This document shows positions 25,175-62,901 of a DNA stretch of 64,000 nucleotides, in pieces. Below the pieces are notes generated by a model that did not search any database, was not told the DNA's origin, and was given only the letters and a program-made list of their open reading frames with translations. The stretch spans positions 1-64,000 of the IMG/VR virus record IMGVR_UViG_3300001528_000699; one strand, given 5' to 3'. Made by a program: the position numbers and the translations under genes. Every line of letters starts with the position of its first letter. The first letter of the stretch is position 1. The stretch is from a virus (Duplodnaviria > Caudoviricetes).

Positions 25175-27514
25175 ATGAATGAAATGATTGATAGTAGAAA
25201 AGAGATCGGAGATTACATCTTCGTCAGCAAATACGCGAGGACCGTTAACGGTAGAAAAGAAACGTGGGATGAAAGCGTTGACCGGGTCATGGACATGCAC
25301 TACCGGCACCTGGCAAGTGATATGGCGATAAAGGCTGAGGATGAAAAAGAACTCGATTCTTATTTGAAATTCGCCGAAACGTTGTATCGTGAACAGGTAA
25401 TTCTCGGTGCTCAACGCGCTCTTCAATACGGTGGAGATTCCTTGCTGAAGAATCATTCCCGGAACTTCAATTGCACGGGATCGTACATTGATAGAATCGA
25501 GTTCTTCCAGGAATTGATGCACCTCCTTCTATGTGGCGCGGGTGCCGGTTACTCGGTTCAGAGAATACACACGGAGAAGCTACCTAAATTGAAAGGTTTA
25601 GATGAGAAGATGGACCCCGTTAACATCGTTATAGGTGATTCGATAGAGGGATGGGCGTTCGCCGTTGGAGAGGTTGTGAAATCCCATTACCTCGGTTTGC
25701 CCGCGATCAATTTCGATTACTCCCTTATAAGGCCGAAAGGTGCTTTCATAAGCGGTGGGTTCAAGGCGCCGGGACCCGATCCTTTAAAGAAATGTATCGA
25801 GAAATTGAACAAGGTGTTGAGAAAGATAAAAGGAAGGAAAGCGACCCCGTTCGAGTTGCACCGGATGGCTTGTATCATAGCCGATGCCGTTATCTCCGGT
25901 GGTATACGGAGATCTGCCCTTCTATGTCAGTTTGATGCTGATGACGAGGAAATGCTGAATTGTAAGACGGGGAATTGGTTCAGCGAGTACCCGGAACTGG
26001 CGAGAGCGAATAACAGCGCGGTGATCCTCCCTAACACGCCGAAAGAAACGTATGATAAGATATTTAAATCGATAAAAGAGTTCGGTGAACCCGGTTTGGT
26101 CTTCCTATCGCACAAGGACGTGGTATATAATCCGTGTTGCGAGGTGGGGATGTTTCCGAAATTCAAGAACAAGGATGGTGTTCACGAATCCGGGTTCTCT
26201 TTCTGTAACCTTACCGAGATAAACGGGGCGAAAATAAAAACGAGGGAGCAATTCCTTGATGCTTGCAAGGGTGCAGCTATTTTGGGTACGATTCAAGCGT
26301 CATACACTAATTTCAAGGTTCTATCTCCCGTTTCTCGAAAGATAGCTGAAAGGGATGCATTGATCGGTGTTGGCGTAACGGGTATGTGTGAGAACCCGGA
26401 AATACTGTTTGATCCTGAATTGCAGGATGAAGGCGCGAGGGTGGTGAAAGAAACGAATCAAAAGGTGGCGGATTTGATCGGCATAAATCACGCGGCTCGA
26501 ACCACCGTTATTAAACCGTCAGGTAACTCTTCCCAGCTACTTGGATGCACGAGTTCGGGTATTCATAAATTTCATTTCAAGAGGTTCATAAGAAACATAC
26601 AGGCAGCTAACACGGAACAAGCCTTACAACATATCAAAGAGGTAAACCCGGTGATGGTCAGACCTTCTGTTTACAACAAGGAAGGGGAGAGTGTCATATC
26701 ATTCCCGGTTGAACTGGAAAATAACGTGCTGACGAGCGAGGATTCATCCGCCCTTGATTTCCTGAAATTGGTGAAGCTAACGAAAGAGCATTGGATCGAG
26801 ACGGGAACCAATTTCGATCATCCCTTCTATAAAGAATACCCGGAGATGAAGGATCTTCGCATGAACGTTTCAAACACTTGCACGGTAAAAGACGATGAAT
26901 GGGACGGGGTAAGGGAGTACGTGTGGAAGAACAGGGATGTGTTTTCGGGGATCAGTTTCCTCCCTAAAGGAGGCGATCTTATTTACCCTCAAGCCCCATA
27001 TACTAGCGTTTTGAATGAAAAAGAGCTGGCGGAAAGGTATGGCGCGGGAGCGATACTCGCCGGAGGTTTGATTGTTGATGGTTTGGCCGTGTTCAACGAT
27101 GATCTGTGGCTGGCGTGTGATGTGGCGATGGGAAGAAATAACCACCATTTAACTTTAACCGACAAGGATATATCCGATTTCATCCTCTCTCACCTAAAAG
27201 ACGGAAAACTATTGGTTGAGGTGAACGGGGTTATGATCAGCGATGTTAACGCCATTTCATCTCATCTCCAATCCATCGTGGATAAGAAGGTGGATTGGGT
27301 GAGAAGATTCAAGAATTTCGCGATCAAGTACTTGGACGGAGATCTGGTAAAAACCGAATTTTGTCTCAAACACGTATCCCTGTTTCATCGCTGGCAGAAA
27401 TTGAAAGGCATGAAACATGTTGACTGGGAATCGGTTACTTGGAACGAGGAATGGGTGGATGCCGGGTCAACCGTCGCTCAAGCGTGTTCGGGTGGTATGT
27501 GCGAGCTAAAATGA
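25175..27514 (+). CDS. nrdJ: Class II (B12-dependent) ribonucleotide reductase
   Basis: FNCT, GGIRRSA, NPCCE, CNLTEIN, TTVIKPSGN, C-terminal ACSGGMCE; no nrdB in window. Confidence 0.85.
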   Translation: MNEMIDSRKEIGDYIFVSKYARTVNGRKETWDESVDRVMDMHYRHLASDMAIKAEDEKELDSYLKFAETLYREQVILGAQRALQYGGDSLLKNHSRNFNCTGSYIDRIEFFQELMHLLLCGAGAGYSVQRIHTEKLPKLKGLDEKMDPVNIVIGDSIEGWAFAVGEVVKSHYLGLPAINFDYSLIRPKGAFISGGFKAPGPDPLKKCIEKLNKVLRKIKGRKATPFELHRMACIIADAVISGGIRRSALLCQFDADDEEMLNCKTGNWFSEYPELARANNSAVILPNTPKETYDKIFKSIKEFGEPGLVFLSHKDVVYNPCCEVGMFPKFKNKDGVHESGFSFCNLTEINGAKIKTREQFLDACKGAAILGTIQASYTNFKVLSPVSRKIAERDALIGVGVTGMCENPEILFDPELQDEGARVVKETNQKVADLIGINHAARTTVIKPSGNSSQLLGCTSSGIHKFHFKRFIRNIQAANTEQALQHIKEVNPVMVRPSVYNKEGESVISFPVELENNVLTSEDSSALDFLKLVKLTKEHWIETGTNFDHPFYKEYPEMKDLRMNVSNTCTVKDDEWDGVREYVWKNRDVFSGISFLPKGGDLIYPQAPYTSVLNEKELAERYGAGAILAGGLIVDGLAVFNDDLWLACDVAMGRNNHHLTLTDKDISDFILSHLKDGKLLVEVNGVMISDVNAISSHLQSIVDKKVDWVRRFKNFAIKYLDGDLVKTEFCLKHVSLFHRWQKLKGMKHVDWESVTWNEEWVDAGSTVAQACSGGMCELK

Positions 27515-27557: not shown

Positions 27558-27590
27558 AGGGTGGATCTTTCCACCCTCTTTTTTTATTTT
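27558..27590 (+). terminator. Intrinsic terminator
   Basis: AGGGTGGA/TCCACCCT plus T run. Confidence 0.75.
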
Positions 27591-27700
27591 CAGATTTTTA
27601 ACAAAACTTTTCTCCGTTTCTTTTTGTAGTTTGATAAACTTTGTGTATCTTTACAGTGTTGAAAATGATGTATAACTAAAAACAATAAGAGATATGAAAG
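27591..27700 (+). repeat. Promoter cassette repeat, copy 2
   Basis: 27631-27700 is identical to 34480-34549, including the ATGAAAG start. Confidence 0.9.
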
Positions 27701-28089
27701 GCTCAAGATTATATAACGACATTGATTTCTCACAACCGGTTGCAACACACATTTACGTTGAAGGTTTATCTCGTATTCAACTAGCAAACGAATCGTTAAA
27801 AGCGATGGCAAGAATCAATCAAGCTGAACAGGGATCGATACGGGATTCATACGAACTCGCATCATCCACGATGAGAGATCGTAGAACATTGATAGAAACG
27901 ATATATGAGGATGGGTACGTGATGTATAACGATGGCTGGTTTATTGTTGAATGCGATGAGAATGGAACTCTTTATGTTGACGTGACAGGTCTTGCGATGA
28001 AGAAATGCCCGGAATACAATGATATGAAATACTTTGTAAGCGAAGGGTTGGAACCTGAATGTAATGATTATGTTTACGCTAGAAGATAA
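27694..28089 (+). CDS. Early hypothetical protein; untagged paralog of the cargo domain of 50453..51031
   Basis: ATHI, ELASS, YNDGW.IVE, LYVDVTG.AM and SEGLE shared. Confidence 0.8.
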   Translation: MKGSRLYNDIDFSQPVATHIYVEGLSRIQLANESLKAMARINQAEQGSIRDSYELASSTMRDRRTLIETIYEDGYVMYNDGWFIVECDENGTLYVDVTGLAMKKCPEYNDMKYFVSEGLEPECNDYVYARR

Positions 28090-34435: not shown

Positions 34436-34440
34436 CTTTA

Positions 34441-34549
34441 AGATTTTTACCCAAACTTTTCTCCGTTTCCTGTTGTACATTGATAAACTTTGTGTATCTT
34501 TACAGTGTTGAAAATGATGTATAACTAAAAACAATAAGAGATATGAAAG
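34441..34549 (+). repeat. Promoter cassette repeat, copy 3
   Basis: 70 bp identical to 27631-27700. Confidence 0.9.
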
Positions 34550-45811: not shown

Positions 45812-46071
45812 AAGAGTGTCAAGTTAAATCTAATCGAATTTTGGAAATGGCAACATCCAGCGATTAGAAGGCTGACAAAACCTATGAAACCAGAAATTGC
45901 CATTTCCAACTGTAAAAATACGATGAAATTTTTGGATAAACAACAAATATACAAAGTTTATTTAGAAAATCGCTCCAAAATGACCGAGTAAAAAGGTTGT
46001 ACATATAAATATTGGGTAAAAAAGTCACCACAGCAATCCCAAAAATGACCGAACAAAAACAAGAAATTTAA

Positions 46072-46187
46072 ATGGTATAAAAATGATCCCACAAAAATTG
46101 TACATATAAATATGGTATAAAAATGATCCCACAAACTATAGGAAAATGGTATAAAAATGATCCCACAAATGGTATAAAAATGATCCC
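46072..46187. repeat. Four direct repeats ATGGTATAAAAATGATCCC(ACAAA), iteron-like
   Basis: Copies start at 46072, 46112, 46146 and 46169 in an 860 bp non-coding divergence region. Confidence 0.9.
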
Positions 46188-46698
46188 CAATAAAGATAAT
46201 ATCGGTATTTATAAAGATATTCGGATATTCAATAAATTGAATATCCTATTTAAAACGAAGTAAAGATATTCACGGATTCGACATGTTCGAACCCGGTTCC
46301 GGATGAACCCGTTCCGGGTGATTTCATCACCCTAAAACGGATCCCCTCGGCATAGGGGTGGGGTGGTCACCCTTCAGGCGGACTCACCCGCACCCTGACG
46401 CCTCACGGTCTGGGAAAATTAGAGGGATAAGGAAGGGGAAGGAACAAAAATTAGAACCTCCTAATTAAAGGATGAAATAAGAGGATCTGTAATTAAAAAT
46501 CAAAAAGGGTGGGGTGGTCACGAGTCTGAAAATTCTTTAAAAAGTCTTACGAAAATTTTTAACCATCAAAACCGGGTTTTCTGGTACTGATACAATCGGA
46601 TCTCGAATTTTTGAGTTATAGAAAATAATCCGTATCTTTATCACGATTATATCACCCTTCAAGAAAACGGGGTGTTGGTTAGAATAAAAAGAGAGAAT

Positions 46699-47315: not shown

Positions 47316-49049
47316 ATGAGTAGAAAGGTAAGAAATAACAATTCGGCGAGGGAACAATCCACGGGTTACGACAAGGTGATAAAGAGCATCGCCTCCATGT
47401 CATTCTCGGAGCTCAACTCGCTAGGCGAGGCTATCCCTACCATCTTGAACTCGAAATTACAGGCTTCACTCGCATCGGATGACGTGGAGAAGGCGATAGA
47501 GGCTGGGCTGTACGTGGAGAAACAACGTATCAGATCCACCGAGCAGAACAAATCCATTTTCTTCCTACCCGATAGCATCGCTTATTCGGGGCGTGGGTAC
47601 AAGGAAACTCTGAGCAGGATATCGTTTCAGACCCTTCAGAGGATGGGTAACCTCTATTGCGTGAAAAATGTCATATCAACCCGCATCGAGCAGATAACTC
47701 GTTTCCTGAAATTTTCTAACGATGAACAGAAGGAAGGGTTCACCATTCGAAAGAAGAAATCCTTGTTCGATTCGGGAGAGGATCGAGGGAAAATGACCAA
47801 AGGCGAGAGAAAAAGGGTAGAGAGAATAGTTAACTTCCTAGAGAACGGGGGAGAGACGGATAAGTGGGAGATGGCGGATTCCTTCGTTACCTTCGTGAGA
47901 AAGATCATGCAGGATTCACTCTCCATCGATCAGCTCGCTTTCGAGATAACCAGAACGAGGGGTCAGGAGCTTCATCAATTCAAAGCGATAGACGGGAGCA
48001 TGATACGGTTCCTCGATACCATCGACCCTAATTACGCTTCGCAATTCGAGAGGTACAGGTATAAAGGTTATCTCCCCAAATACTGTCAAGTTTTCGACCA
48101 GCAAATCGTTTTCAACAAGCAACTCGGTACTTACGTGATGTACTATCCGTGGGAGCTTGGGTTCGGGGTGAGAAACGTTGGAACGGATATTTGGCAGAAC
48201 GGGTACGGGAGAAGCGAGCTTGAATCATTGATAGAGATAATTACCTATATCCTTAACGGGGTACAGTATAACGGTAACTTCTTCAAGAACGGGTCAAACC
48301 CGAAAGGGTTCGTTAATATAAAAAACATGAATACGAACTCGACGGCGTTAAACGATTTCAAACAGAAGTGGAGACAGATGCTTACGGGTACTGAAAACGC
48401 TTGGAAATTGCCTGTTTTCTCAGGGTTGGACGTGGAGTGGATTCCGATTGGTGTCAATAACAAGGACATGGAGTTTGATAACTGGACCAAGTTCTTGATA
48501 GTTCTCCTATGCTCCGTTTACCGGATAGACCCGAGCGAGCTGGGATTCCAGTTCAAGGAAGCAGCTAACGTGTTCGGGCAGGACGGTCAGAAAGCTCGGT
48601 TGGATCACAGCCGCCAGAAAGGTTTGTACCCACTCCTAATATTCCTTCAGGATATCATTAACAAGTTTATCGTGTCCGAGCTCGACGAGGAGATGGAGTT
48701 CGCGTTTACTGGGATAGAGGTGGAGGACGAGGAGAAACAGGTTAAACTTGACGCTGATAAACTTTCAGCCGGTATGGTATCCATGCAAGACATGTTCAGA
48801 AAATACTCGGGGAGGGAGTTCGATGAGAACAAGGACATAATCCTCAACCAGGTGTACCAAACCCAGAAGCAAATGTCGATGTACGGTGGCGAGGGGATGA
48901 ACCAGGTTGTTGACGAGCAAACGGGCGAACCTGAAGCGGGAGTTCCGAATCCCTTCGAGGAGATGGAGAGGAGCATGACCTCTAACCCTATTTTCGAGAA
49001 GGCTTGCGAGTTCATAGATAAAAGTTTCAACGATGACAACGAGGGATAG
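47316..49049 (+). CDS. Portal protein
   Basis: GYGRSELE, YNGNFFKNGSNPKG, WKLPV, DMEF..W, YRIDPSELG, GLYPLL. Confidence 0.88.
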   Translation: MSRKVRNNNSAREQSTGYDKVIKSIASMSFSELNSLGEAIPTILNSKLQASLASDDVEKAIEAGLYVEKQRIRSTEQNKSIFFLPDSIAYSGRGYKETLSRISFQTLQRMGNLYCVKNVISTRIEQITRFLKFSNDEQKEGFTIRKKKSLFDSGEDRGKMTKGERKRVERIVNFLENGGETDKWEMADSFVTFVRKIMQDSLSIDQLAFEITRTRGQELHQFKAIDGSMIRFLDTIDPNYASQFERYRYKGYLPKYCQVFDQQIVFNKQLGTYVMYYPWELGFGVRNVGTDIWQNGYGRSELESLIEIITYILNGVQYNGNFFKNGSNPKGFVNIKNMNTNSTALNDFKQKWRQMLTGTENAWKLPVFSGLDVEWIPIGVNNKDMEFDNWTKFLIVLLCSVYRIDPSELGFQFKEAANVFGQDGQKARLDHSRQKGLYPLLIFLQDIINKFIVSELDEEMEFAFTGIEVEDEEKQVKLDADKLSAGMVSMQDMFRKYSGREFDENKDIILNQVYQTQKQMSMYGGEGMNQVVDEQTGEPEAGVPNPFEEMERSMTSNPIFEKACEFIDKSFNDDNEG

Positions 49050-49705: not shown

Positions 49706-49763
49706 TTGGAAAGAATAAACAAAGTTTATATTTTTAGATCAGAAAAATAAAATAAAAATTGTT

Positions 49764-50243
49764 ATGGGATTTATAGAAGAACAAATACAGAAAAATATAG
49801 CGAATCGAGTTGCTATTGAGAAAGCGACGGGTAAAGAATTTACCGAATCCGATTGCTTGGATTTATTGGAGAAAGCTGGAAAAGCTGCTCAAATGGGTGA
49901 GGTTCGTACATGGAACGGAAAAGAATACATCAAGACACCAAAGGGATGGAGACCGAAACCGAAAGGTTACAAGGAAGGTGAGAAGAAACAGGAAGTTACC
50001 GAAGCTGGAAACCCGGTTGGAAAACCTGAATCAGTGACATCTAAAAAAGTGACTGATGGATTTAAGGTTGGTGATCGAGTTATGTATCAAGGTAAGCTCA
50101 TGGAATTGACTCGTATTAGCAAGGATGGTCGGTTCCAAAATGGTATCGAGATGAAATTCGTGAATGAAGGTGATTCAACACCAACCGGTAGTAAAACATT
50201 ACAGGGTAATATGATGTACGCTAAACCTGTCAAGGAAAAATAA
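49764..50243 (+). CDS. Tagged putative internal head protein with SH3/KOW-like cargo
   Basis: LLEKA-GKAAQMGEVRTWNGKEYIKTPKGWRP tag; FKVGDRVMYQG. Confidence 0.65.
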   Translation: MGFIEEQIQKNIANRVAIEKATGKEFTESDCLDLLEKAGKAAQMGEVRTWNGKEYIKTPKGWRPKPKGYKEGEKKQEVTEAGNPVGKPESVTSKKVTDGFKVGDRVMYQGKLMELTRISKDGRFQNGIEMKFVNEGDSTPTGSKTLQGNMMYAKPVKEK

Positions 50244-50252
50244 TTATATATT

Positions 50253-50456
50253 ATGAATAAGAAAATATCCGGTATAGATATTAAGACTGTTAGACCGGTC
50301 GTTAAAAAGGAAAAGGCGGGGGTTAAAGACCCCGTCCGCTTTCCTGATGTCATAAACGGGTACGAGAACGAGAGCAAGAGGCTGTTCAACGAGGAGTTGA
50401 ACCTTCTGTTCGCTGACGTGGTGAAAAAGATGGTTGGTATTATAAAGGATAAGTGA
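50253..50456 (+). CDS. Hypothetical protein
   Basis: ORF in head operon. Confidence 0.6.
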   Translation: MNKKISGIDIKTVRPVVKKEKAGVKDPVRFPDVINGYENESKRLFNEELNLLFADVVKKMVGIIKDK

Positions 50457-51031
50457 TGGAAAATCTTGATATAAAAGCGTTGGATGTTATCGAGAAATCC
50501 GGTAAACCGGCGCAGATAGGTGAAATCCGTGTTTGGAACGGAAAGCGGTATCACAAAACCCCTAAAGGCTGGCGACCGGTTCCAAAAGGTTATCGTGAAA
50601 ACAAGCAAGATCCGGCGAAGATCAAATATCAAAACAAAGACGAAAGCTATAAACCGAAAGCCACCCATATCTGGGTCGATGGATTGAAGGATAATAGAGA
50701 GAAAGCCCTTCGCGTTATGCAAGCGATGAAGGATATTCAAGGTGGTTACGCTCAAGGAACTTTAACCAATCCATCTGAACTCGCTAGCTCTTATGTTAAG
50801 AAAAACGATGGAGGAAGATGGATAAGTGATAATAACGGTGATAAAACGTTAATACAAGCTGTTCTCACTGGCGATGAGGTTGATTATAACGATGGATGGT
50901 ATATCGTTGAAACGGACGGCGATGTTTTATACGTTGATGTGACCGGACAAGCTATGAATGAGAACCCGGATGATTACAAGAATATGGAATACGTTACCAG
51001 TGAGGGATTGGAGTCCGGGAAAGAAGAATAA
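50453..51031 (+). CDS. Tagged putative internal head protein; cargo homologous to 27694..28089
   Basis: VIEKS-GKPAQIGEIRVWNGKRYHKTPKGWRP tag plus shared domain. Confidence 0.75.
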   Translation: MMENLDIKALDVIEKSGKPAQIGEIRVWNGKRYHKTPKGWRPVPKGYRENKQDPAKIKYQNKDESYKPKATHIWVDGLKDNREKALRVMQAMKDIQGGYAQGTLTNPSELASSYVKKNDGGRWISDNNGDKTLIQAVLTGDEVDYNDGWYIVETDGDVLYVDVTGQAMNENPDDYKNMEYVTSEGLESGKEE

Positions 51032-51042
51032 AATAATTAATC

Positions 51043-53079
51043 ATGTTATTCAACAACGAGCAAATACAGGATATACTTGAATTGGTGGATTTCAGGTTCG
51101 CTGATCTGGTGTGGAAGATATTCGGACCATCTCATTTAACCTCGCAGGACAAGGAGAAGTTGAGAAAGTTCGGGGTGAACCCGTCATCGCTCGTTAAAAA
51201 AATACCGCCCTATTGGGCTAACTGGATGTTTGGCCTTCTATCAGGAAAATTGAATGATTACCAAACCAAGCAAATAACGTACAAGGATCTTCTCGAATAT
51301 CTCGGAAGAAGGCAATACGAGACACCATCTAAAAGGGAGATAGAATCGTACGAGGTGGCCTGCAATCGCACGTACGGTTATTTGAAAGGGTTGGGTGATA
51401 AGATGAAGAAGGATATAACGAGTTACATATCTGATACCGAACTTCAAACTAGGATGGAGCAGGATCGTGTCATAAAGGAGGGGATAAAAAGAGGTATCTT
51501 GGAAAGGGATACGACAAAACTCATAGCTTCTAAAATAAGTAACCAGTTGGATGACTGGTCAAGGGATTGGAACAGGATAGTGGAGACGGAGTATCAGGGC
51601 GTTTTTAACATGGGTAGGGTACAATCCTACATGAGAGAAGGAGACGGAGAGAATACGCTAATTTATTTCGACGTGTTTCCTGGCGCATGTTTTCCAACCT
51701 CTGATACAGAATTTTTAACGGATGAGGGGTTTAAATTGTTAAAAGATATTAGGGGGGATGAAAAAGTTGCGTCATTTAATATTGAAACGAATACCTTGGA
51801 ATATACTGAAATTGAAAGTAAAATTCAATATTGGTATGAGGGCGTGATGAATGAATATAAGCATCATTCCCTTGATATGATCTGCACCCCTAATCATAAA
51901 CAATTAATTGGGATAGATTACCACCCCAAAGAAGGTGTTTACACAAAAAATCAATTAATTGATAGTTCGGAAGTTCCTTCCTTAACAAAACGGGCATATA
52001 TGTATTATACCGTTGATAATTGGGTTGGGCATGATGATGAAAAAATTGAAATTGCAGGGAAAAGGTTTGATACAAAGCCTTTTGTGAAAATGATGGGTTG
52101 GTATTTATCGGAAGGTTCAGTGGTTCCAAGAAAAAGTGACAAGAATGGTCATTATAATTCAACTCAGTTATGCATTTCGCAATCAAAAGTTAGTAATTTT
52201 GATGAAATCAAGGATTGCCTAGATAAAACATTTTGCCAAAAAGTGTATTACAGTTCGTCTCGGAATAATATTGATGGTCATTTTGTCGTATTGTTGGATA
52301 AATCCTATGATCCGTTCGTTAAGTGGTTAAAATCATTAGGTGATAGAGCGCATACGAAAACAATTCCAAAAGAAATAAAATTATTATCGAAAAAATATCT
52401 TTTTGAATTTCTGCTATCTTATTGGAAAGGAGATGGTTTCGGTAGGGGTGGGACTTTTATGGATGGAAATCGTCATATTGTTACGTCATCAAAGCAAATG
52501 GCGGATGATTTATCGGAGATAATTTTAAAGTGTGGTTACCGACCTTCATTAAAAATTATCGATAAGAGGGGTGTAACAACATTTTCAAAGAAAAGAAATA
52601 AGTCGTTTACCACCAGGCACCTGATTTATAAAGTGGGTATTTTGATAAGTAAACATTTTAATTCAATATATAAACATTTTAATGTGATTGATAATTGGAA
52701 AGGCGAGGTTGGTTGTTTGCAATTAAAAAAGAATTCGACATTATATATAAGGAGAAGTGGCCAATCAATTTGGAGCGGGAATTGTAGGCATTGTATAAGG
52801 TTATACTTAACCGGTGGAATAGGTAGCGAACCTAAATTGTTCACTATCAAGGAATTGATGGGAAACGGAACTAATATAGGTAGAAAGGTAAATGATTGGA
52901 AACCAACGGTTATAACCAGTATTCACCCCTTCTGTAGGTGCTTGGCTCGCAGGTATATGAAAGGCGATGTCTGGGACAAGGAAACGAGATCATTCAAGCA
53001 ACCTGAACATTACGAGAGAAAGGTGGCACCTAAAGTGAAAGTCAGAATACAGGTAGGTGATAAAGTTTTCAACGTTTAA
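51043..53079 (+). CDS. Head morphogenesis protein (MuF/SPP1 gp7-like), intein-interrupted
   Basis: RDWNRIVETE, GA|intein|CRHCIRLY, HPFCRC. Confidence 0.8.
   Translation: MLFNNEQIQDILELVDFRFADLVWKIFGPSHLTSQDKEKLRKFGVNPSSLVKKIPPYWANWMFGLLSGKLNDYQTKQITYKDLLEYLGRRQYETPSKREIESYEVACNRTYGYLKGLGDKMKKDITSYISDTELQTRMEQDRVIKEGIKRGILERDTTKLIASKISNQLDDWSRDWNRIVETEYQGVFNMGRVQSYMREGDGENTLIYFDVFPGACFPTSDTEFLTDEGFKLLKDIRGDEKVASFNIETNTLEYTEIESKIQYWYEGVMNEYKHHSLDMICTPNHKQLIGIDYHPKEGVYTKNQLIDSSEVPSLTKRAYMYYTVDNWVGHDDEKIEIAGKRFDTKPFVKMMGWYLSEGSVVPRKSDKNGHYNSTQLCISQSKVSNFDEIKDCLDKTFCQKVYYSSSRNNIDGHFVVLLDKSYDPFVKWLKSLGDRAHTKTIPKEIKLLSKKYLFEFLLSYWKGDGFGRGGTFMDGNRHIVTSSKQMADDLSEIILKCGYRPSLKIIDKRGVTTFSKKRNKSFTTRHLIYKVGILISKHFNSIYKHFNVIDNWKGEVGCLQLKKNSTLYIRRSGQSIWSGNCRHCIRLYLTGGIGSEPKLFTIKELMGNGTNIGRKVNDWKPTVITSIHPFCRCLARRYMKGDVWDKETRSFKQPEHYERKVAPKVKVRIQVGDKVFNV
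51688..52782 (+). mobile_element. Intein with LAGLIDADG endonuclease (365 aa)
   Basis: CFPTSDTEFLT, CTPNH, GWYLSEGS, SYWKGDG, ends WSGN followed by +1 Cys; AT-richer than flanks. Confidence 0.9.
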
Positions 53080-53141: not shown

Positions 53142-53777
53142 ATGGAAGAAACAAGTACTCTCGTGAAGTTGATAGCTGATAACGGTATAACGGTCGTGCT
53201 AAGTGCTGTCACGATAATCATATTCTTGAACGTTTTCCGGAAAGCTACTAGAAACTGGGAGAGGATGGAAAAGAAGAATGATCACCTCATCGACTTGATA
53301 GTGGCGAAAGGAACTGCCGGTGATTACATGGAGAAACAGATCGAGATAAATAACAACATGCTTTCCATATTGAAAGAGATAAGGGAGGGTGCGACGAAAG
53401 AATGCACGATAGAGCAAGTCAAAACAACCACTAACGCTCTTTTCGATCTCGCCAAGTTCACCATGTTCGAGGAGGTGAAACGGATAAAAAAGGAGAATCA
53501 TCTAAATAACGAGGCGGCTATCGAAACGAAAGTGAAAACGATCGTTCATCAAAGAATAAATGACAGGAAAAGCAAACTGTACAATTACAACTGGAAGGGA
53601 AAGCCTTTAAGCGAGTTTAACTCCGTTTCGAAGGATGATATAGTCGATATAATGATAGGGGAGCTCTACGCGCCTGACGATTTCTCGGAAGAGAGGGTGA
53701 AAAGGAATATGGAGCTTTTCTATGATAACATGAAACTTGATTTGTTCAATGAAATTGTGGCGTATAATAATTTATAG
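53142..53777 (+). CDS. Single-TM membrane protein, holin-like candidate
   Basis: N-terminal TM (GITVVLSAVTIIIFL) plus soluble domain. Confidence 0.45.
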   Translation: MEETSTLVKLIADNGITVVLSAVTIIIFLNVFRKATRNWERMEKKNDHLIDLIVAKGTAGDYMEKQIEINNNMLSILKEIREGATKECTIEQVKTTTNALFDLAKFTMFEEVKRIKKENHLNNEAAIETKVKTIVHQRINDRKSKLYNYNWKGKPLSEFNSVSKDDIVDIMIGELYAPDDFSEERVKRNMELFYDNMKLDLFNEIVAYNNL

Positions 53778-53778
53778 T

Positions 53779-55506
53779 ATGAACTGGTTGAAAAAGATAC
53801 TTGGAATGACGGCGTGTAGCAAGGAGGAGAAGGTAGCCCGCTACATGGAATTGTTGAAAAGCATGGATGTTATCGAATCGGAAGCTGACGAGCTGGCCGA
53901 TTCTTTCCGTTTAAACAAATCGATGGTTGATAACGTGAAGGGTTGTGACATGGAAGAGATGGATAAGAGATTGGAAAGATTTGATGAGTTCATGCTGTGT
54001 CATAAGAAGGATGTTCACGAGCTACTGAAGGCGAAGATGGAAGTGGAGGATGAGATGAAGAAATTGAAGGAAGACCCCTCTATCTCTAAAGATATCAATG
54101 ACATCGATACTTATTTTAAAGCCAAGAAAGAATACAAGGCACGGAAATCAACGTTGAAAGAATTTAACGGTTCGATCAGGAAAGCGAAAGAAGGTCCTGT
54201 CAAGTACTCGGATGCCTTGGTGTTCGATTGTAACGGGAAATTGTTGATCCTTCACAGGATACAGGATGGCAAGCATTGCGAGGGAGGTGAATGGTGCATC
54301 CCCGGTGGTCACGTTGATCCGGGTGAGAACCATCGTGAAGCGGTAGAGAGGGAATTGAAAGAAGAAACCGGGTTGAAATTGAGAATGGAACCTGATCCGG
54401 CTGGATTCTATAACGACGATGAAGCGGATATTCATTATTACCGTGCCTTCACTGAAGAGAGTGAACCCTCTATCCTGGTTGATAGCACGGAGCATGATGG
54501 CGTGGAATGGATAGATTTGAGAGATATAGACAAGTACGATTTCATATTCAACATGAAAGATAACCTTAAAAAATTACTCGGCATGGAAGAGAAAGAAGAG
54601 AAAGGACCGGATACCATAGAGATACTCGCTAAAGCGTTAAAATCCGGTCAGATAACACCGGCTGTTTTCAGGGAAGCGGTCGAGAAAGCTAAAAATAAAA
54701 CTTATTTCTCGGAGAAGGAACGTGGAAAACTCGCTAAAGAAGGCGAAGCGATGCCTAACGGGAAATATCCAATAAGAAACGCTCAAGATTTGAAGGATGC
54801 CATTAAACTGGTTGGGGCGTCATCCATGCCGGAAGGTGAGGTAAAATCGTGGATCAAGAAAAGAGCGAAAGAGTTGAACCTTGAAAACGAGCTACCAGAA
54901 GATTGGAGGGATGTCGAGAAAGCGGTGGGAACGGAACAGGCGGAAACTATCGCGAGAGAATCGCTAGACGGTGAAATGAAGGATGATCGGGTTGAGAAAT
55001 CGTCCTTCTCTATTCGCGTTGATTTCGATGACTTGGAGAAAGCCGATCTTTTCAAATCCATGGTGGAGAAATATAAATCGGAGGGTGATCTCGGTATAAC
55101 GAGTGTTGACGTGATCGATATTGATGAAAACGAGGATAAAGAAATTTTCCGGGATTACCTGAACTTCATCGAGGGTGCTAAAACGAGAATCAAGAACCTG
55201 CACTGGACGGAAGAGGATAACGCCAAGCACGTTTACCTAGATGAATTATCTGAAGAGGTGTCAAAATTCGAGGATAAGATAGCGGAAGCGGGTCAAGCGA
55301 ATTTCGGTCGGTTCAAGGATGGTGAGATAGTGGGTGATGATATCCAAACGAGCGATCCTATCATGATCGTTGACCTTTTACTTGATATGACGAGCTCTTT
55401 CCGGTCCAAGTTGAATGAAAGACTCGTTTATAACGGTGAGATTTCATGGGTGGATGATTTCCTCGCCACTTTAAAGCAGATCAAATATCGTTTGCAATTA
55501 CATTAA
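53779..55506 (+). CDS. Multidomain head-associated protein: coiled coil, NUDIX, DUF6582-like and ferritin/Dps-like
   Basis: Nudix box GGHVDPGENHREAVERELKEETG; AMPNGKYPIRN..DL..AI; NLHW...HVYLDEL...DKIAE. Confidence 0.75.
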   Translation: MNWLKKILGMTACSKEEKVARYMELLKSMDVIESEADELADSFRLNKSMVDNVKGCDMEEMDKRLERFDEFMLCHKKDVHELLKAKMEVEDEMKKLKEDPSISKDINDIDTYFKAKKEYKARKSTLKEFNGSIRKAKEGPVKYSDALVFDCNGKLLILHRIQDGKHCEGGEWCIPGGHVDPGENHREAVERELKEETGLKLRMEPDPAGFYNDDEADIHYYRAFTEESEPSILVDSTEHDGVEWIDLRDIDKYDFIFNMKDNLKKLLGMEEKEEKGPDTIEILAKALKSGQITPAVFREAVEKAKNKTYFSEKERGKLAKEGEAMPNGKYPIRNAQDLKDAIKLVGASSMPEGEVKSWIKKRAKELNLENELPEDWRDVEKAVGTEQAETIARESLDGEMKDDRVEKSSFSIRVDFDDLEKADLFKSMVEKYKSEGDLGITSVDVIDIDENEDKEIFRDYLNFIEGAKTRIKNLHWTEEDNAKHVYLDELSEEVSKFEDKIAEAGQANFGRFKDGEIVGDDIQTSDPIMIVDLLLDMTSSFRSKLNERLVYNGEISWVDDFLATLKQIKYRLQLH

Positions 55507-55549: not shown

Positions 55550-57700
55550 ATGTTGAGTGAATTATTTAACGATATAAAGAAATCGAAGAACGTCGCCTCT
55601 ATCGGTGAGAAGCGGAAGTGGGGAGATAGGTGGTACATGAAGACCCCTCGCGGATGGGTGCTCACCAATGAAGAAGTGAATAAATTAACCGAGGAAGCTT
55701 TTCGTGCTAGAGAGGAGGAACTTGAAAGGAGAATAAATGAAGATCCCGAATTCCGTGCCCGCTATCAGAAAGAGCACGGTGAGGGATACACACCTTTCGT
55801 TCATTTAAAAGGAAATATCTCGGTAAAAGAAGTCGCTGGCATTCGGTTAAGAAATAGCGGTATTGACACGAAAGCTAAGAACTTGATGGCGCTTTTTCTA
55901 CCGAAGGCCGGGCAATGGGTTATCCCGATGCTGGGAGTGAACATTCCTCTAACCGATAAGATGAGGGAAGTGATCAGGGAACGGGGAAGATGCGAGCTGT
56001 ATTTCAGGAAAACGAAGAACGCGGCACCCGTTCGTGTGATGGTTGAAATGGATGAACGTGGTCGTTTTAAATTCACGGAAGCCACGAAAAGAGAAGGGAA
56101 AGTAGATGAATGGAAACTGTCTGTTGGTTCGGCTCTTGATCATGGATTATCCGGTCCTCATTTTTACAGTATCGACCTTGTCATGCCTTTCAAAGATGAT
56201 ATAGAGAAAGCGAAAGGTGCCGCTATCGGAGAGGAAAGGGAGTGGGGTGGAAAGGTTTACGTTAAAACTGTAAAAGGGTGGAGACCTAAAGGAAAAGGCG
56301 CGAAATCATCAGAGGATGATGAGGTCAAAACAGATCAATCTTCCAAAAATGAAATTCAGGGCGGCGATAAAAAAGCGATTCTTGAAGGGTACGCGTCTCA
56401 AGCGACTGACAAGCAACTTGAAACCGCCATGAATAAACCCGGTCAATCGGAAGAGGTGAGAAATATCGCCAAGCAAGAACTTGAAAATCGAGGGAAGGAA
56501 GTGAAGGAAGTTGAGGATGAAATTTCTTCGGCTTTAAATAAGCTGTTACAAAGCGATGAATTTGATGATGAATTTAAGAGGTTGCTTCAATCAAAACTCG
56601 ATGAGAGAACAGCTAAAAAACAGGAAAAAGAGAGTGAATCGGGAGAGAAGAAAGAGTTTGAATCATTCAAGAAGGAAGTAACTGAAAGGTTGGATAAACT
56701 TGAACAAGAAAATTCAGGTCACAAGCAGATAAAGAAAACGGGAATCATCGTTGACGGAAAGAAAATTTTTATCACGATGGATGGCGATCGTTATCAAGCG
56801 AAGAAAGGTGGTGAGACCTTGAAATCAGAACCGAATGAATCTCTGTCTAGTTTCAAGGATAAGGTGAGGGAAAAGTGGGGTGAAAAACAGGGGGAAGAAA
56901 AGGGCGAGCTAGAAAGAGATAAATTACCTGAAACACCCGAAATTGATATTCCGTTAGAAAGGATTAAAAAGGCAATAAGTGAGGGTGATTATAAAAACAA
57001 TTGGTTTTATAAAATGGTAATGGAAGATTCCGATGAAGCTCTCAGTTTCAGGAATGATAGAGAATTTCAACTTCTTTCAAACGCGGCGTTGCTTGAAAAA
57101 GGATTACGCCCTGTAATGGCACCCTTTGCGTTCACGGAATATGGTGGTGTGCAGTATAAGAGTTATGATCAGTATTTCATGGATTCGAACGATTCATTGA
57201 ATATTTATAAGAAGAAATTCAGGCCTTCAAGATCGATTTACACCAAGGCGGAAAAGGATGCGATGGAGGATTATAGTGGTGCGTATTTTGAATCCGTTCG
57301 AAGTTTTAATATTGATGGAACAGTGCCGTCATATCATGAAAAAGAGAAGGATGCGATTCGCCATACATCCGAATTAATTAAATCTTTTATAGATAGGAAT
57401 CGATTGAAAGAGAATGTTATTCTGAGTCGTCGCTTAAATTTTAAGGAGGGTGAAGAAAATCCATTTTTAAATCTTAAACCGGGTGATACATTTACCGACC
57501 CTTCATTCGGTTCATATTCACTCCGTCAATTATCAAGTTTTGGTCATTTTCAAATAACGTTACTCGCGAAGAAAGGTCAAGCTATATCAGCGATAAAATC
57601 AAATTGGCTGGGAGAACAAGAACTTCTTGCCCAAAAAGGATTGAAGTTTAAGGTTCTTGAAACCGGATATAAATCTATTGCGGTTGAGATAGTTGATTAA
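55550..57700 (+). CDS. Doubly tagged head protein with C-terminal VIP2-like ADP-ribosyltransferase (T4 Alt analogue)
   Basis: Two GE.R.W..YxKT..GW tags; LSRR, FTDPSFGSYS and GEQELL R-S-E motifs. Confidence 0.8.
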   Translation: MLSELFNDIKKSKNVASIGEKRKWGDRWYMKTPRGWVLTNEEVNKLTEEAFRAREEELERRINEDPEFRARYQKEHGEGYTPFVHLKGNISVKEVAGIRLRNSGIDTKAKNLMALFLPKAGQWVIPMLGVNIPLTDKMREVIRERGRCELYFRKTKNAAPVRVMVEMDERGRFKFTEATKREGKVDEWKLSVGSALDHGLSGPHFYSIDLVMPFKDDIEKAKGAAIGEEREWGGKVYVKTVKGWRPKGKGAKSSEDDEVKTDQSSKNEIQGGDKKAILEGYASQATDKQLETAMNKPGQSEEVRNIAKQELENRGKEVKEVEDEISSALNKLLQSDEFDDEFKRLLQSKLDERTAKKQEKESESGEKKEFESFKKEVTERLDKLEQENSGHKQIKKTGIIVDGKKIFITMDGDRYQAKKGGETLKSEPNESLSSFKDKVREKWGEKQGEEKGELERDKLPETPEIDIPLERIKKAISEGDYKNNWFYKMVMEDSDEALSFRNDREFQLLSNAALLEKGLRPVMAPFAFTEYGGVQYKSYDQYFMDSNDSLNIYKKKFRPSRSIYTKAEKDAMEDYSGAYFESVRSFNIDGTVPSYHEKEKDAIRHTSELIKSFIDRNRLKENVILSRRLNFKEGEENPFLNLKPGDTFTDPSFGSYSLRQLSSFGHFQITLLAKKGQAISAIKSNWLGEQELLAQKGLKFKVLETGYKSIAVEIVD

Positions 57701-59761: not shown

Positions 59762-60550
59762 ATGATAGAGAATAGATTTAATTTTTGGGTCCCGATTGAT
59801 ATAGAGAAAGCGAGATCCGACAAGGAAAAAGAAGATGATTCCCGCTACGATAACATGGTGTTCGAGGGCGTGGCGAGTGATGATAGCGAGGATGATGAAG
59901 GGGAATCGATGAATCCAAGCGGGTTCGTGCTGGATAGATTCCTGAAAAGCGGTTTATTGAACCTTGACCACCTAACCTCGAGAGCGAAAGAGAATAAGTC
60001 TCGGTTTTGGATAGGTGAGCCGATTGACGCTTACGTGAAGGATAATAAATTCTTCGTGAAAGGAAAATTGTGGAAGAAATCGCCAGAAGCGAGGGCGTTC
60101 TGGGATAAGTGTATCCAGATGTCGGAGTCCGGTTCATCCCGTAAACCGGGAATGTCGATAGAAGGGAAAGTGATAGAGAGAGATAAAATGAACCCAAGAA
60201 AGGTAAACAAGGCATTGATCACGAACGTGGCTTTAACCTTTCAACCGGTGAACACGAACTCTTTCTTCGATATCGTGAAAGGTCGTCAATCAAAAGATTT
60301 CATCGATTACGAGTTTGAAAGCGACAAGGATTTTGATGAAAATGACAAGGTGATACTTGAATGGGAAGACGAGAGAGGCAACCTCCTGATGCTTGATTCA
60401 AAATTCAAGATCAAGGTGAAGAAAAAGCCAGAGTACAAGGTGGAAACGATCGAAAAGATGGCGAAAAGTTTCTCGGAAGGATCCGTTTCAGAGAGGGTTT
60501 ATATCGATTTCATCAAAAAGATAGAGAAAAATTTCCGTTTATCAAATTAA
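59762..60550 (+). CDS. Prohead protease
   Basis: FEGVASD...DEGE, LNLDH, IGEP, GMSIEG, NVALT.QPVN. Confidence 0.85.
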   Translation: MIENRFNFWVPIDIEKARSDKEKEDDSRYDNMVFEGVASDDSEDDEGESMNPSGFVLDRFLKSGLLNLDHLTSRAKENKSRFWIGEPIDAYVKDNKFFVKGKLWKKSPEARAFWDKCIQMSESGSSRKPGMSIEGKVIERDKMNPRKVNKALITNVALTFQPVNTNSFFDIVKGRQSKDFIDYEFESDKDFDENDKVILEWEDERGNLLMLDSKFKIKVKKKPEYKVETIEKMAKSFSEGSVSERVYIDFIKKIEKNFRLSN

Positions 60551-61377: not shown

Positions 61378-62901
61378 ATGGTTGGAGAACAATTTGATTT
61401 TAATGGAGTAACTCCGGGAATCGACCGGGGAGAGTTCTTATCCGCCGATATTCTGAAGGCCATGGAAGCCGGGTTACAAACCGGTATGCAATACGCTAAC
61501 ACCTTGAATAACGGTGGCGGCTTGAAAGTGGAGTCTTTGGATGGCGTCATCAAGGTGTTGGAATACACTGAGAAACAATTGGTGTTGTGGAAAAACATCG
61601 GTAAAAAGAAAATTTACAACACCGTTCATCAATACAACCAGTTAGTGAAATACGGTAACAATATCGGGATCGCTAACTTGGAAGGTGAAACACCTCAATT
61701 CACCGATTCTCAATACAGACGGAAACCGATCATCACCAAGTTCTTGGGAGTTAGCGGTCAGGTAACGCATCCCGCAACCTTGGTTCGTATCGCCGCTGAA
61801 GGGGATTCAATGTACGAATTAGAGGTTCGTAATAAAACCTTGTTATTGTTACAAAACCTGAACGTTGCCCTGTCTAACTTCGATAGTAGCTGTATCGACG
61901 AGGAGTTTTCCGGTATCTGGCAGCAACACGTTGAGGGTATCCTCGATATTTACGGAGGTATGTCAGGAAAAACTTCCGAGGCGATCCTTGACACCTATTA
62001 TAACGATCCGGCTGTTGTTAACGCTGATGGTAATATCTTGAGCGACTTCAGCTTGCAAGAAGCAACGAACACCATCGTTAACTTGCGTTACGGTTTCGCT
62101 GACAAGATCATCGCCAATCCGATCGTTTTCACTGACTACGTGAACGCTCATACAGCTAACAAGGTGTTGAATGTGAACGGTGTATCTGGAAGTATGATGA
62201 ATGCTCGTGCCGGGTTACAAGTAACCAGCGTTGCAACTCAGTTCGGTGACATCGATTTCATGGCCGACCCGTTCTTCGATAGCAAACCGGCTCGTTTGGC
62301 AACTTCACCAGCTACTAACGACAAAGCCCCGGCCGCCCCGGTTAAAGATAACACAGCCGCAGTTGCGGTGGTAAACAACGATACGAAGACCAATTTCACG
62401 AACCACGAAGGATCTTACCTGTACGCTGTTGCCGCCAAGAATCGCTATGGAGAAAGTGCGTTGACTAAATTGAACGACGTTGCTCAAGCAGTGACAAAAA
62501 CTCAATCCGTTGATTTGAAATTCACCGCGGCCGTTGATTCAGTTTACCCGACTCAAGCATTCGTGATCTACCGTACGGAAGTTAACCCGGCAAACGCCGC
62601 AACCGCTAATTACTACCCGATTTTCCAAATCCCGGTATCTCAGTTAGCTTCAGGTTACGACGGTGCTGCCGCTAACGCTGTTCGTGATAGAAACCGTTCT
62701 ATCGCAGGAACTCACTCGGCTTTGGTATTCAAGATGGATGATTCCTTGATCCAATACTTGCAATTGGCTGACACGATGAAGATGGAGTACGCTATCACTT
62801 CACCGAGTAGACGCTTCTCTATCTTGAATTACGGTACGCCGGTACTGTACGCTCCTGGTAAGTTTGTGAGAATTTGCAACATTGGACGTAAAGCGGAATA
62901 A
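61378..62901 (+). CDS. Major capsid protein (SPO1/Twort-like)
   Basis: ILKA...GGGLKVESLD..IKVL, TVHQYNQ, YGTPVLYAP.K..RI.NI. Confidence 0.88.
   Translation: MVGEQFDFNGVTPGIDRGEFLSADILKAMEAGLQTGMQYANTLNNGGGLKVESLDGVIKVLEYTEKQLVLWKNIGKKKIYNTVHQYNQLVKYGNNIGIANLEGETPQFTDSQYRRKPIITKFLGVSGQVTHPATLVRIAAEGDSMYELEVRNKTLLLLQNLNVALSNFDSSCIDEEFSGIWQQHVEGILDIYGGMSGKTSEAILDTYYNDPAVVNADGNILSDFSLQEATNTIVNLRYGFADKIIANPIVFTDYVNAHTANKVLNVNGVSGSMMNARAGLQVTSVATQFGDIDFMADPFFDSKPARLATSPATNDKAPAAPVKDNTAAVAVVNNDTKTNFTNHEGSYLYAVAAKNRYGESALTKLNDVAQAVTKTQSVDLKFTAAVDSVYPTQAFVIYRTEVNPANAATANYYPIFQIPVSQLASGYDGAAANAVRDRNRSIAGTHSALVFKMDDSLIQYLQLADTMKMEYAITSPSRRFSILNYGTPVLYAPGKFVRICNIGRKAE

Follow-up and report, generated by a model that had tools for sequence, protein, structure and literature searches.

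A phage genome encodes the same uncatalogued domain twice, as a bare gene behind a promoter cassette and as tagged cargo in its head module

The window analyzed here (the whole stretch of DNA, 64,000 nucleotides [nt]) covers the first 64 kb of a gut phage record in IMG/VR (IMGVR_UViG_3300001528_000699; 99,507 bp) that has direct terminal repeats. The bare domain copy (27694..28089, plus strand) is a protein of 131 amino acids with an isoelectric point of 4.6. It follows a ribonucleotide reductase gene (25175..27514) that is continuous in the window; in three related genomes (G001, G002, and G003), the B12-type reductase is split or interrupted near residue 320 (open frames, 917 to 1,125 amino acids). 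Direct reading of the sequence reveals a terminator-like hairpin (GGTGGA-TCTT-TCCACC) with a T run (27560..27586, plus strand) that closes the reductase gene unit, and this element sits at the equivalent position in the relatives L003 and G006. Immediately behind it lies a promoter-plus-leader cassette of 113 nt (27588..27700, plus strand; repeat families D1 to D5), the conserved leader of which extends through ATGAAAG. The cassette contains a −33 TTG (27624-27626) and a −7 TATCTTTA (27646-27653), which fits the core TTG-N19/20-TAnnTTTA, and the arrangement TTG-N19-TATCTTTA corresponds to the Bacteroidota −33/−7 layout with A as the last base. A second cassette (34437-34549) is 94% identical to it, again through ATGAAAG, so that the preliminary description was correct in placing the start of the bare copy inside a promoter cassette: the repeat runs past the start codon. 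Twelve copies of the long cassette are present genome-wide and none within the structural module (46.6-90 kb). The bare gene, with the hairpin and T run upstream and no terminator downstream, heads a short operon of small genes. Its AF2 model has a pLDDT of 83 and a pTM of 0.79.

The second copy of the domain is encoded in the head module, which starts with the portal gene (47316..49049, plus strand; PF04860, E = 2.8e-18; phrog_12, E = 6.7e-35) and continues with two small genes, the tag genes described below, a MuF-like gene, a 211-amino-acid gene, a Nudix/Dps-like fusion, a 716-amino-acid protein, a repeat protein, the head maturation protease (59762..60550, plus strand; phrog_1028, E = 4.4e-39), a 247-amino-acid gene, and the capsid protein (61378..62901). 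By its position between protease and capsid, the 247-amino-acid gene is probably the scaffold. This major capsid protein shares 38 to 39% identity with its counterparts in the Bacteroides thetaiotaomicron phages DAC19 to DAC23 and about 32% with those in SPO1-like Bacillus phages. The MuF-like gene (51043..53079) carries an HPFCRC motif, has weak head-morphogenesis PHROG matches, and contains an intein-like insert of about 360 residues with a weak LAGLIDADG_3 match; several of the loci L052, L053, L054, and L059 have an uninterrupted allele in which residues 1 to 216 are joined straight to residues 576 to 678. The fusion protein (589 amino acids, 53737-55506) consists of a Nudix domain (PF00293, E = 3.9e-20) joined to a Dps-like C terminus, the latter assigned from a subthreshold DUF5856 match and phrog_858. 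The portal gene is intact in the window; in L047, L055, L057, and L058, it is broken by about 1.3 kb between residues ∼362 and ∼359, which suggests the insertion of an intron, an intein, or a homing endonuclease. A 28-nt repeat (AAATGGTATAAAAATGATCCCACAAA) occurs four times in the gap just ahead of the structural module (46064-46194).

Between the portal and MuF-like genes lie a 159-amino-acid gene (49764..50243, plus strand), a 67-amino-acid gene (50253..50456, plus strand), and the second domain gene (50453..51031, plus strand). The real start of the latter is probably ATG at 50456 rather than GTG at 50453, since the stop codon of the 67-amino-acid gene overlaps this ATG (TGATG) and the start of the homologue P0124 agrees with it. 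A BLASTP comparison of the two domain genes (27694..28086 versus 50453..51028) gave 50 identities in 122 positions (41%; E = 6e-23), pairing residues 14 to 120 of the bare copy with residues 67 to 187 of the tagged copy, and the domain common to both open reading frames comprises about 115 amino acids. The resemblance along the length of the bare copy, which the preliminary description had noticed in the sequence and had made dependent on a statistically significant alignment, is thus confirmed, and all six of the motifs quoted there are present. A search of the whole 99,507-bp genome found exactly two copies of the domain and no third.

In the AF2 model of the tagged protein (pLDDT, 75), the domain (residues 68 to 181) has the same order of secondary-structure elements as the model of the bare copy. 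It is preceded by a tag (residues 1 to 45; 50456..50590, plus strand) with a helix at residues 5 to 15, an IEK-S motif, and a basic sheet of three short strands at residues 24 to 41. A disordered linker (residues 46 to 63; 50591..50644, plus strand; pLDDT below 50) separates the tag from the domain copy (50645..51031, plus strand), which contains a 12-residue insertion of the kind also seen in the polyvalent-embedded copies described below. Because this disordered stretch lies between tag and domain, the tag/cargo boundary proposed in the preliminary description is real. The attribution of the N-terminal part to a head tag likewise held: residues 9 to 49 of the tagged gene are 71% identical to residues 31 to 71 of the 159-amino-acid gene, the cargo of which is unrelated to the domain and varies in relatives, and a tag hidden Markov model (HMM) found four copies in the genome, every one in head-module genes. 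Two of these four are located in the 716-amino-acid protein (55550..57700, plus strand; approximately residues 5 to 36 and 209 to 256), the C-terminal 266 residues of which match the ADP-ribosyltransferase (ART) family ADPrib_exo_Tox (PF03496; 26.2 bits, with a gathering threshold of 23.4). The tagged protein itself has no MuF part, and the MuF-like gene is separate and the next gene, so the tagged protein is not a MuF-fused effector.

A scan of IMG/VR detected the tag at 35 loci, in proteins of 136 to 1,227 amino acids and in N-terminal or internal positions. At most of these loci, the tag gene directly follows the portal gene or lies among MuF-like, Nudix, protease, and capsid genes; four short or distant loci have no recognized head neighbor, and one has no tblastn match at all. 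The position in the head block holds even for phages whose portal proteins are only 36 to 48% identical. The number and the cargo of the tag genes vary among close relatives: G001, for example, encodes tag proteins of 191 and 180 amino acids with other cargos and has no tagged domain copy. In distant phages, the tag is also located inside Nudix-containing proteins. The 67-amino-acid gene (50253-50456 in the window; also L048, L049, and L051) occurs with the tag genes in every case and is present in duplicate where these are more numerous, and the two behave as if they were a single shuffling unit. The tag is basic (isoelectric point, 9.8). When its model (residues 4 to 43) was compared with known structures, chain 8y6v_I (34 residues) from the capsid structure of PhiKZ was returned with a Z score of 3.3 and a root mean square deviation of 2.0 over 33 residues, which is within noise and no more than a lead.

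The domain is an acidic alpha/beta domain (isoelectric point, 4.5 to 4.6). In its solo form, it is found in at least 260 homologous clusters of 120 to 140 amino acids, mostly on phage contigs of about 100 to 110 kb. The tagged form is rare, with three close clusters and, from the search for further head-type carriers, one contig each from IMG/VR and from a metagenome scan. A profile search of 1.84 billion representatives matched 45 clusters; four of these (P0133, P0137, P0141, and P0147) are proteins of 1,052 to 1,539 amino acids in which the domain is flanked by tags in the architecture kinase … domain … tag … ADP-ribosyltransferase. The contigs encoding these four are only 5 to 6 kb long, and the gene context of this embedded form lies beyond them. 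One of the four, P0141 (1,539 amino acids), has a Kinase-PolyVal domain (PF18762) at residues 384 to 559 (E = 7.9e-23), the domain at residues 792 to 925, tags, and an ART-like C terminus, and the other three are similar. All four combine two or more effector-type domains in a single polypeptide, as polyvalent proteins do, and the tagged gene of the window, between the portal and MuF-like genes, is encoded among virion morphogenesis genes. The long relatives end in the same ART as the 716-amino-acid protein of the window: residues 604 to 1051 of P0133 align to residues 218 to 714 of that protein, from the second tag through the ART (E = 6e-52). The relatives therefore hold the domain just upstream of the second tag, at a place where the 716-amino-acid protein has none.

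Two subfamilies can be distinguished. Tagged and embedded copies share an N-terminal KY-N-K…YKP stretch and the insertion of about 12 residues, both of which are absent from solo copies. In a maximum likelihood tree, the tagged copies cluster with the polyvalent-embedded ones (SH-aLRT, 82, which is moderate and comes from a quick tree), and the bare copy falls into a clade of solo genes (SH-aLRT, 98). The tagged copy shares 59% identity with the G003 solo gene and 46% with the bare copy of its own genome; it is thus nearer to that solo gene and to the embedded copies than to its own companion, and the two copies therefore did not arise by local duplication. A recent duplication is ruled out by the 41% identity together with the placement in the tree. 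The invariant residues (T18-H19, N79-D80-G81-W82, E86, Y94, D96, and T98-G99) form a core (T-H, YNDGW, E, and LYVDVTG) that is kept in both subfamilies and would be compatible with a small active site as well as with a fixed surface for binding.

Searches for a function of the domain returned matches at chance level only. Pfam and PHROGs searches with both copies and all 53 alignment members yielded only chance-level rows, among them P23-45_gp39_N in three members (best E value, 0.066) and PUD (E = 0.0045 to 0.006, under the cutoff of that family), and both were rejected. The domain matches none of the polyvalent-protein-associated Pfam families, and a sequence profile search of the PDB gave a sole match at an E value of 0.5. 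Structure prediction of the shared domain followed by a Foldseek search, which the preliminary description had proposed as a check, produced no match in the PDB at an E value of ≤0.001. VIA-align comparisons with the wide setting gave best Z scores of 3.0 and 3.4 for the two models, which is noise level; a type VI secretion system (T6SS) effector-immunity entry (9oz0_A) recurred at a Z score of about 3 and was dismissed for the same reason. The single match in BFVD is itself a member of the domain family, and the ESM Atlas gave no usable match.

The presence of the two forms differs even between close relatives. Among the phages of the tag-bearing clade, both forms occur in this genome only. 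The bare form alone is present in the closest relative, G001 (bare copy 95% identical), and in G020, and the tagged form alone in G006, the status of which is not certain because that genome is 82% complete, though the syntenic slot was inspected. In G006, the same terminator and cassette follow the reductase gene, but different genes stand behind them. Five relatives (G011 to G015; 90 to 100% complete) have neither form, which rules out the idea that each relative keeps at least one copy. More distant phages of 103 to 109 kb (G002 to G005) have the domain solely as a bare gene, and a search for the tag at an E value of ≤0.01 found none in them. Because its presence among relatives is so sporadic, the domain is accessory and mobile. 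Between the carriers, solo domains are 65 to 72% identical, compared with 50 to 51% for the portal protein and 55 to 59% for the reductase; the solo domain is thus better conserved than portal and reductase in the comparison with G002 to G005, yet it is missing from close relatives, and conservation above these two proteins is unusual for an arms-race gene. Neither copy had a tblastn match among 50,697 GenBank phage records, and a scan of 185,579 species genomes for prophage hosts gave no confirmed match.

All 35 of the 35 solo loci in IMG/VR have a TTG-N19-TAnnTTTG/A site immediately upstream. In other phage lineages, the solo gene was found in two settings, either as the first or second gene of an operon that faces an XRE-like repressor gene, with a WYL_2 gene adjoining, or as a terminator-promoter unit after an SPP1-type portal gene and a gene with the MuF motif HPNCRC. 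The head module has its own promoter-like sites: the core TTG-N19/20-TATyTTTA occurs at 46611, 49706, 53082, 57693, and 62975, and the simpler site at 49706..49736 (plus strand; TTG-N20-TATTTTTA) lies 28 nt ahead of the first tag gene of the head operon. None of these core sites has the GTG and GTGTTGAAAAT parts of the cassette, and the two promoter classes may be regulated differently. The preliminary description had called the promoter of the bare copy early-type. This was not established, because the head operon shares the same core promoter type (TTG-N19/20-TAnnTTTA).

Taken together, we regard it, with moderate confidence, as probable that the shared domain serves gut Bacteroidota phages as a portable accessory effector module and that this genome came to hold both deployment forms through independent acquisition. 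The common form of deployment would be the solo gene as its own transcription unit, often after a terminator, behind a host-type −33 TTG/−7 TAnnTTTG/A promoter; given this promoter, host RNA polymerase could transcribe the gene without phage factors. The rare form would make the domain part of proteins produced with the head, either embedded in large polyvalent proteins or as a small gene of tag, linker, and domain, and from its context, capsids would probably take up this head form and deliver it to the cell along with the DNA. The tagged copy is linked to likely virion-carried proteins, judging by the ART with the same tag, the head maturation protease gene, and the polyvalent relatives. Two independently mobile modules would then have entered two hot spots of shuffling, one being the position that follows the promoter cassette and the other the array of tag genes that separates the portal gene from the MuF-like gene, leaving one copy of each kind; in support of such hot spots, the tag slots of G001 hold other cargos and the cassette of G006 leads other genes. 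Early supply from two sources may well result, as a by-product in one genome and not as a conserved design. The homology, the tag and its boundary, the split into subfamilies, the patchy distribution, and the promoter layout are directly observed, whereas packaging, any cleavage, injection, timing, and any host-directed activity are steps that we infer, the packaging, cleavage, and timing from gene context.

The preliminary description had gone further and proposed that a single effector is delivered in two waves, first premade from the virion and then newly expressed. Its components have stood, namely, the paralogy, the cassette, the tag, the boundary, and the link to likely virion-carried proteins; the one-effector design, as it was put, is not supported. 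A purposeful system of this kind, in which the capsid would inject the same anti-defense activity ready-made and an early promoter would later replenish it, with both copies kept by selection, would agree with the occurrence of both forms in one genome, with a bare copy behind a cassette that is restricted to nonstructural regions, and with a tagged copy accompanied by an ART bearing the same tag, as with T4 Alt; Alt together with ModA/ModB provides a precedent. However, the copies are only 41% identical and belong to separate, deep subfamilies, the pairing is seen in this genome only (G001 and G020 have the bare form, G006 the tagged form, and G011 to G015 neither), and no anti-defense homology or fold was found with Pfam, PHROGs, the PDB, Foldseek, or VIA-align. 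We therefore consider such a system unlikely, and the two copies appear instead to be old versions that were acquired separately. Bolder, and to our minds just as improbable, is the proposal that the domain, through a new fold, inhibits or modifies a conserved host factor or defense of Bacteroidota and is deliberately supplied twice, ready-made in the capsid by means of a portable loading tag and afterwards by a gene with its own promoter, with tag-plus-cargo genes and polyvalent proteins as interconvertible stores of one injected arsenal.

Alternatively, the two subfamilies might have diverged in function, the solo form being a cytoplasmic regulator or moron product, perhaps even made by a prophage, and the head-type form lacking an effector role and serving as a structural or internal component of the head or as a spacer module within polyvalent proteins. 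The settings of the solo gene in temperate relatives, first or second beside an XRE-like repressor or in a self-contained terminator-promoter unit, would fit this, as would the insertion and N-terminal extension that only head-type copies have. We nevertheless think divergence quite unlikely, since the invariant core residues in both subfamilies argue for one biochemical function and the five close relatives G011 to G015 build heads with no copy at all, so that the domain is dispensable for assembly. A further question concerns the tag, which could act in assembly or DNA binding instead of loading. If it were a small basic module that binds nucleic acids or a host component, the tagged proteins would act after late expression, for example on progeny DNA or in lysis, and not on entry. 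Its basic character, its helix plus three-stranded sheet, and its ability to be internal and repeated, unlike the short, cleaved N-terminal peptides of T4, are compatible with such a role; its strict confinement to the portal-to-capsid gene block across phages with portal proteins 36 to 48% identical speaks against it, as does its linkage to ART and Nudix domains, classes that have been reported to be often packaged in virions (PMC9503650), and we rate this reading as very unlikely.

The domain defines an uncatalogued family of more than 260 solo clusters with rare tagged and polyvalent-embedded forms, and it links early accessory genes of gut Bacteroidota phages to proteins that are probably carried in the capsid. 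Exchange among solo gene, tag-plus-cargo gene, and polyvalent protein is visible in closely related genomes. If the tag loads its cargo, the boundary between tag, linker, and domain offers a ready design for loading tests, and the domain is a reasonable candidate for screens of host takeover or counter-defense in Bacteroides.

Several known systems resemble parts of this arrangement. Proteins carried in the phage head and delivered with the DNA include the T4 internal proteins (such as IPI*) with their capsid targeting sequence and the P1 Dar anti-restriction proteins. The capsid targeting signal of T4 is a short N-terminal peptide of about 10 residues that the prohead protease cuts off. The present genome likewise encodes a head maturation protease; however, the tag comprises about 40 to 45 residues with a predicted fold, is also found internally and in repeats, and has no sequence relation to the T4 signal. 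Like phage morons, the solo gene comes with a host-type promoter of its own directly upstream; it frequently follows a terminator and occupies varying positions across several phage lineages, whereas the bare gene of the window has no terminator after it and heads an operon. Polyvalent proteins of phages and conjugative elements have been described together with solo versions of their domains and cassette genes near the main locus (Iyer, Burroughs, Anand, de Souza, and Aravind 2017; PMC5512222). The present domain follows this pattern in that it occurs within proteins of 1,052 to 1,539 amino acids that string together kinase and ART domains and also exists in solo versions, but the modules here are separated by a repeated tag of about 45 amino acids, and the tagged gene of the window has a single cargo and is not itself polyvalent. 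T4 Alt is an ART packaged in the head (PMC5512222). The same domain families have been found either in early regions or in virion modules, acting early "in either case," and the model for this is the contrast of T4 Alt with ModA/ModB (PMC9503650). Alt is injected, and ModA/ModB are expressed after infection. Gene positions and promoters in the present genome fit such a dual deployment, but the same core promoter type recurs in the head operon. As in T4, paralogous domains are encoded in a head-associated protein and in a separately expressed gene, and an Alt-like ART is present in the head module; the domain itself is not an ART, the pairing is not conserved among relatives, and packaging and timing, known by experiment for T4, are here predictions from gene context. 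That one domain can be either expressed early or packaged in the virion has already been published, and the present case is a new example of this concept and not a new concept; what is new is the domain family, the repeated tag that separates modules, and the side-by-side occurrence of solo, tag-plus-cargo, and embedded forms.
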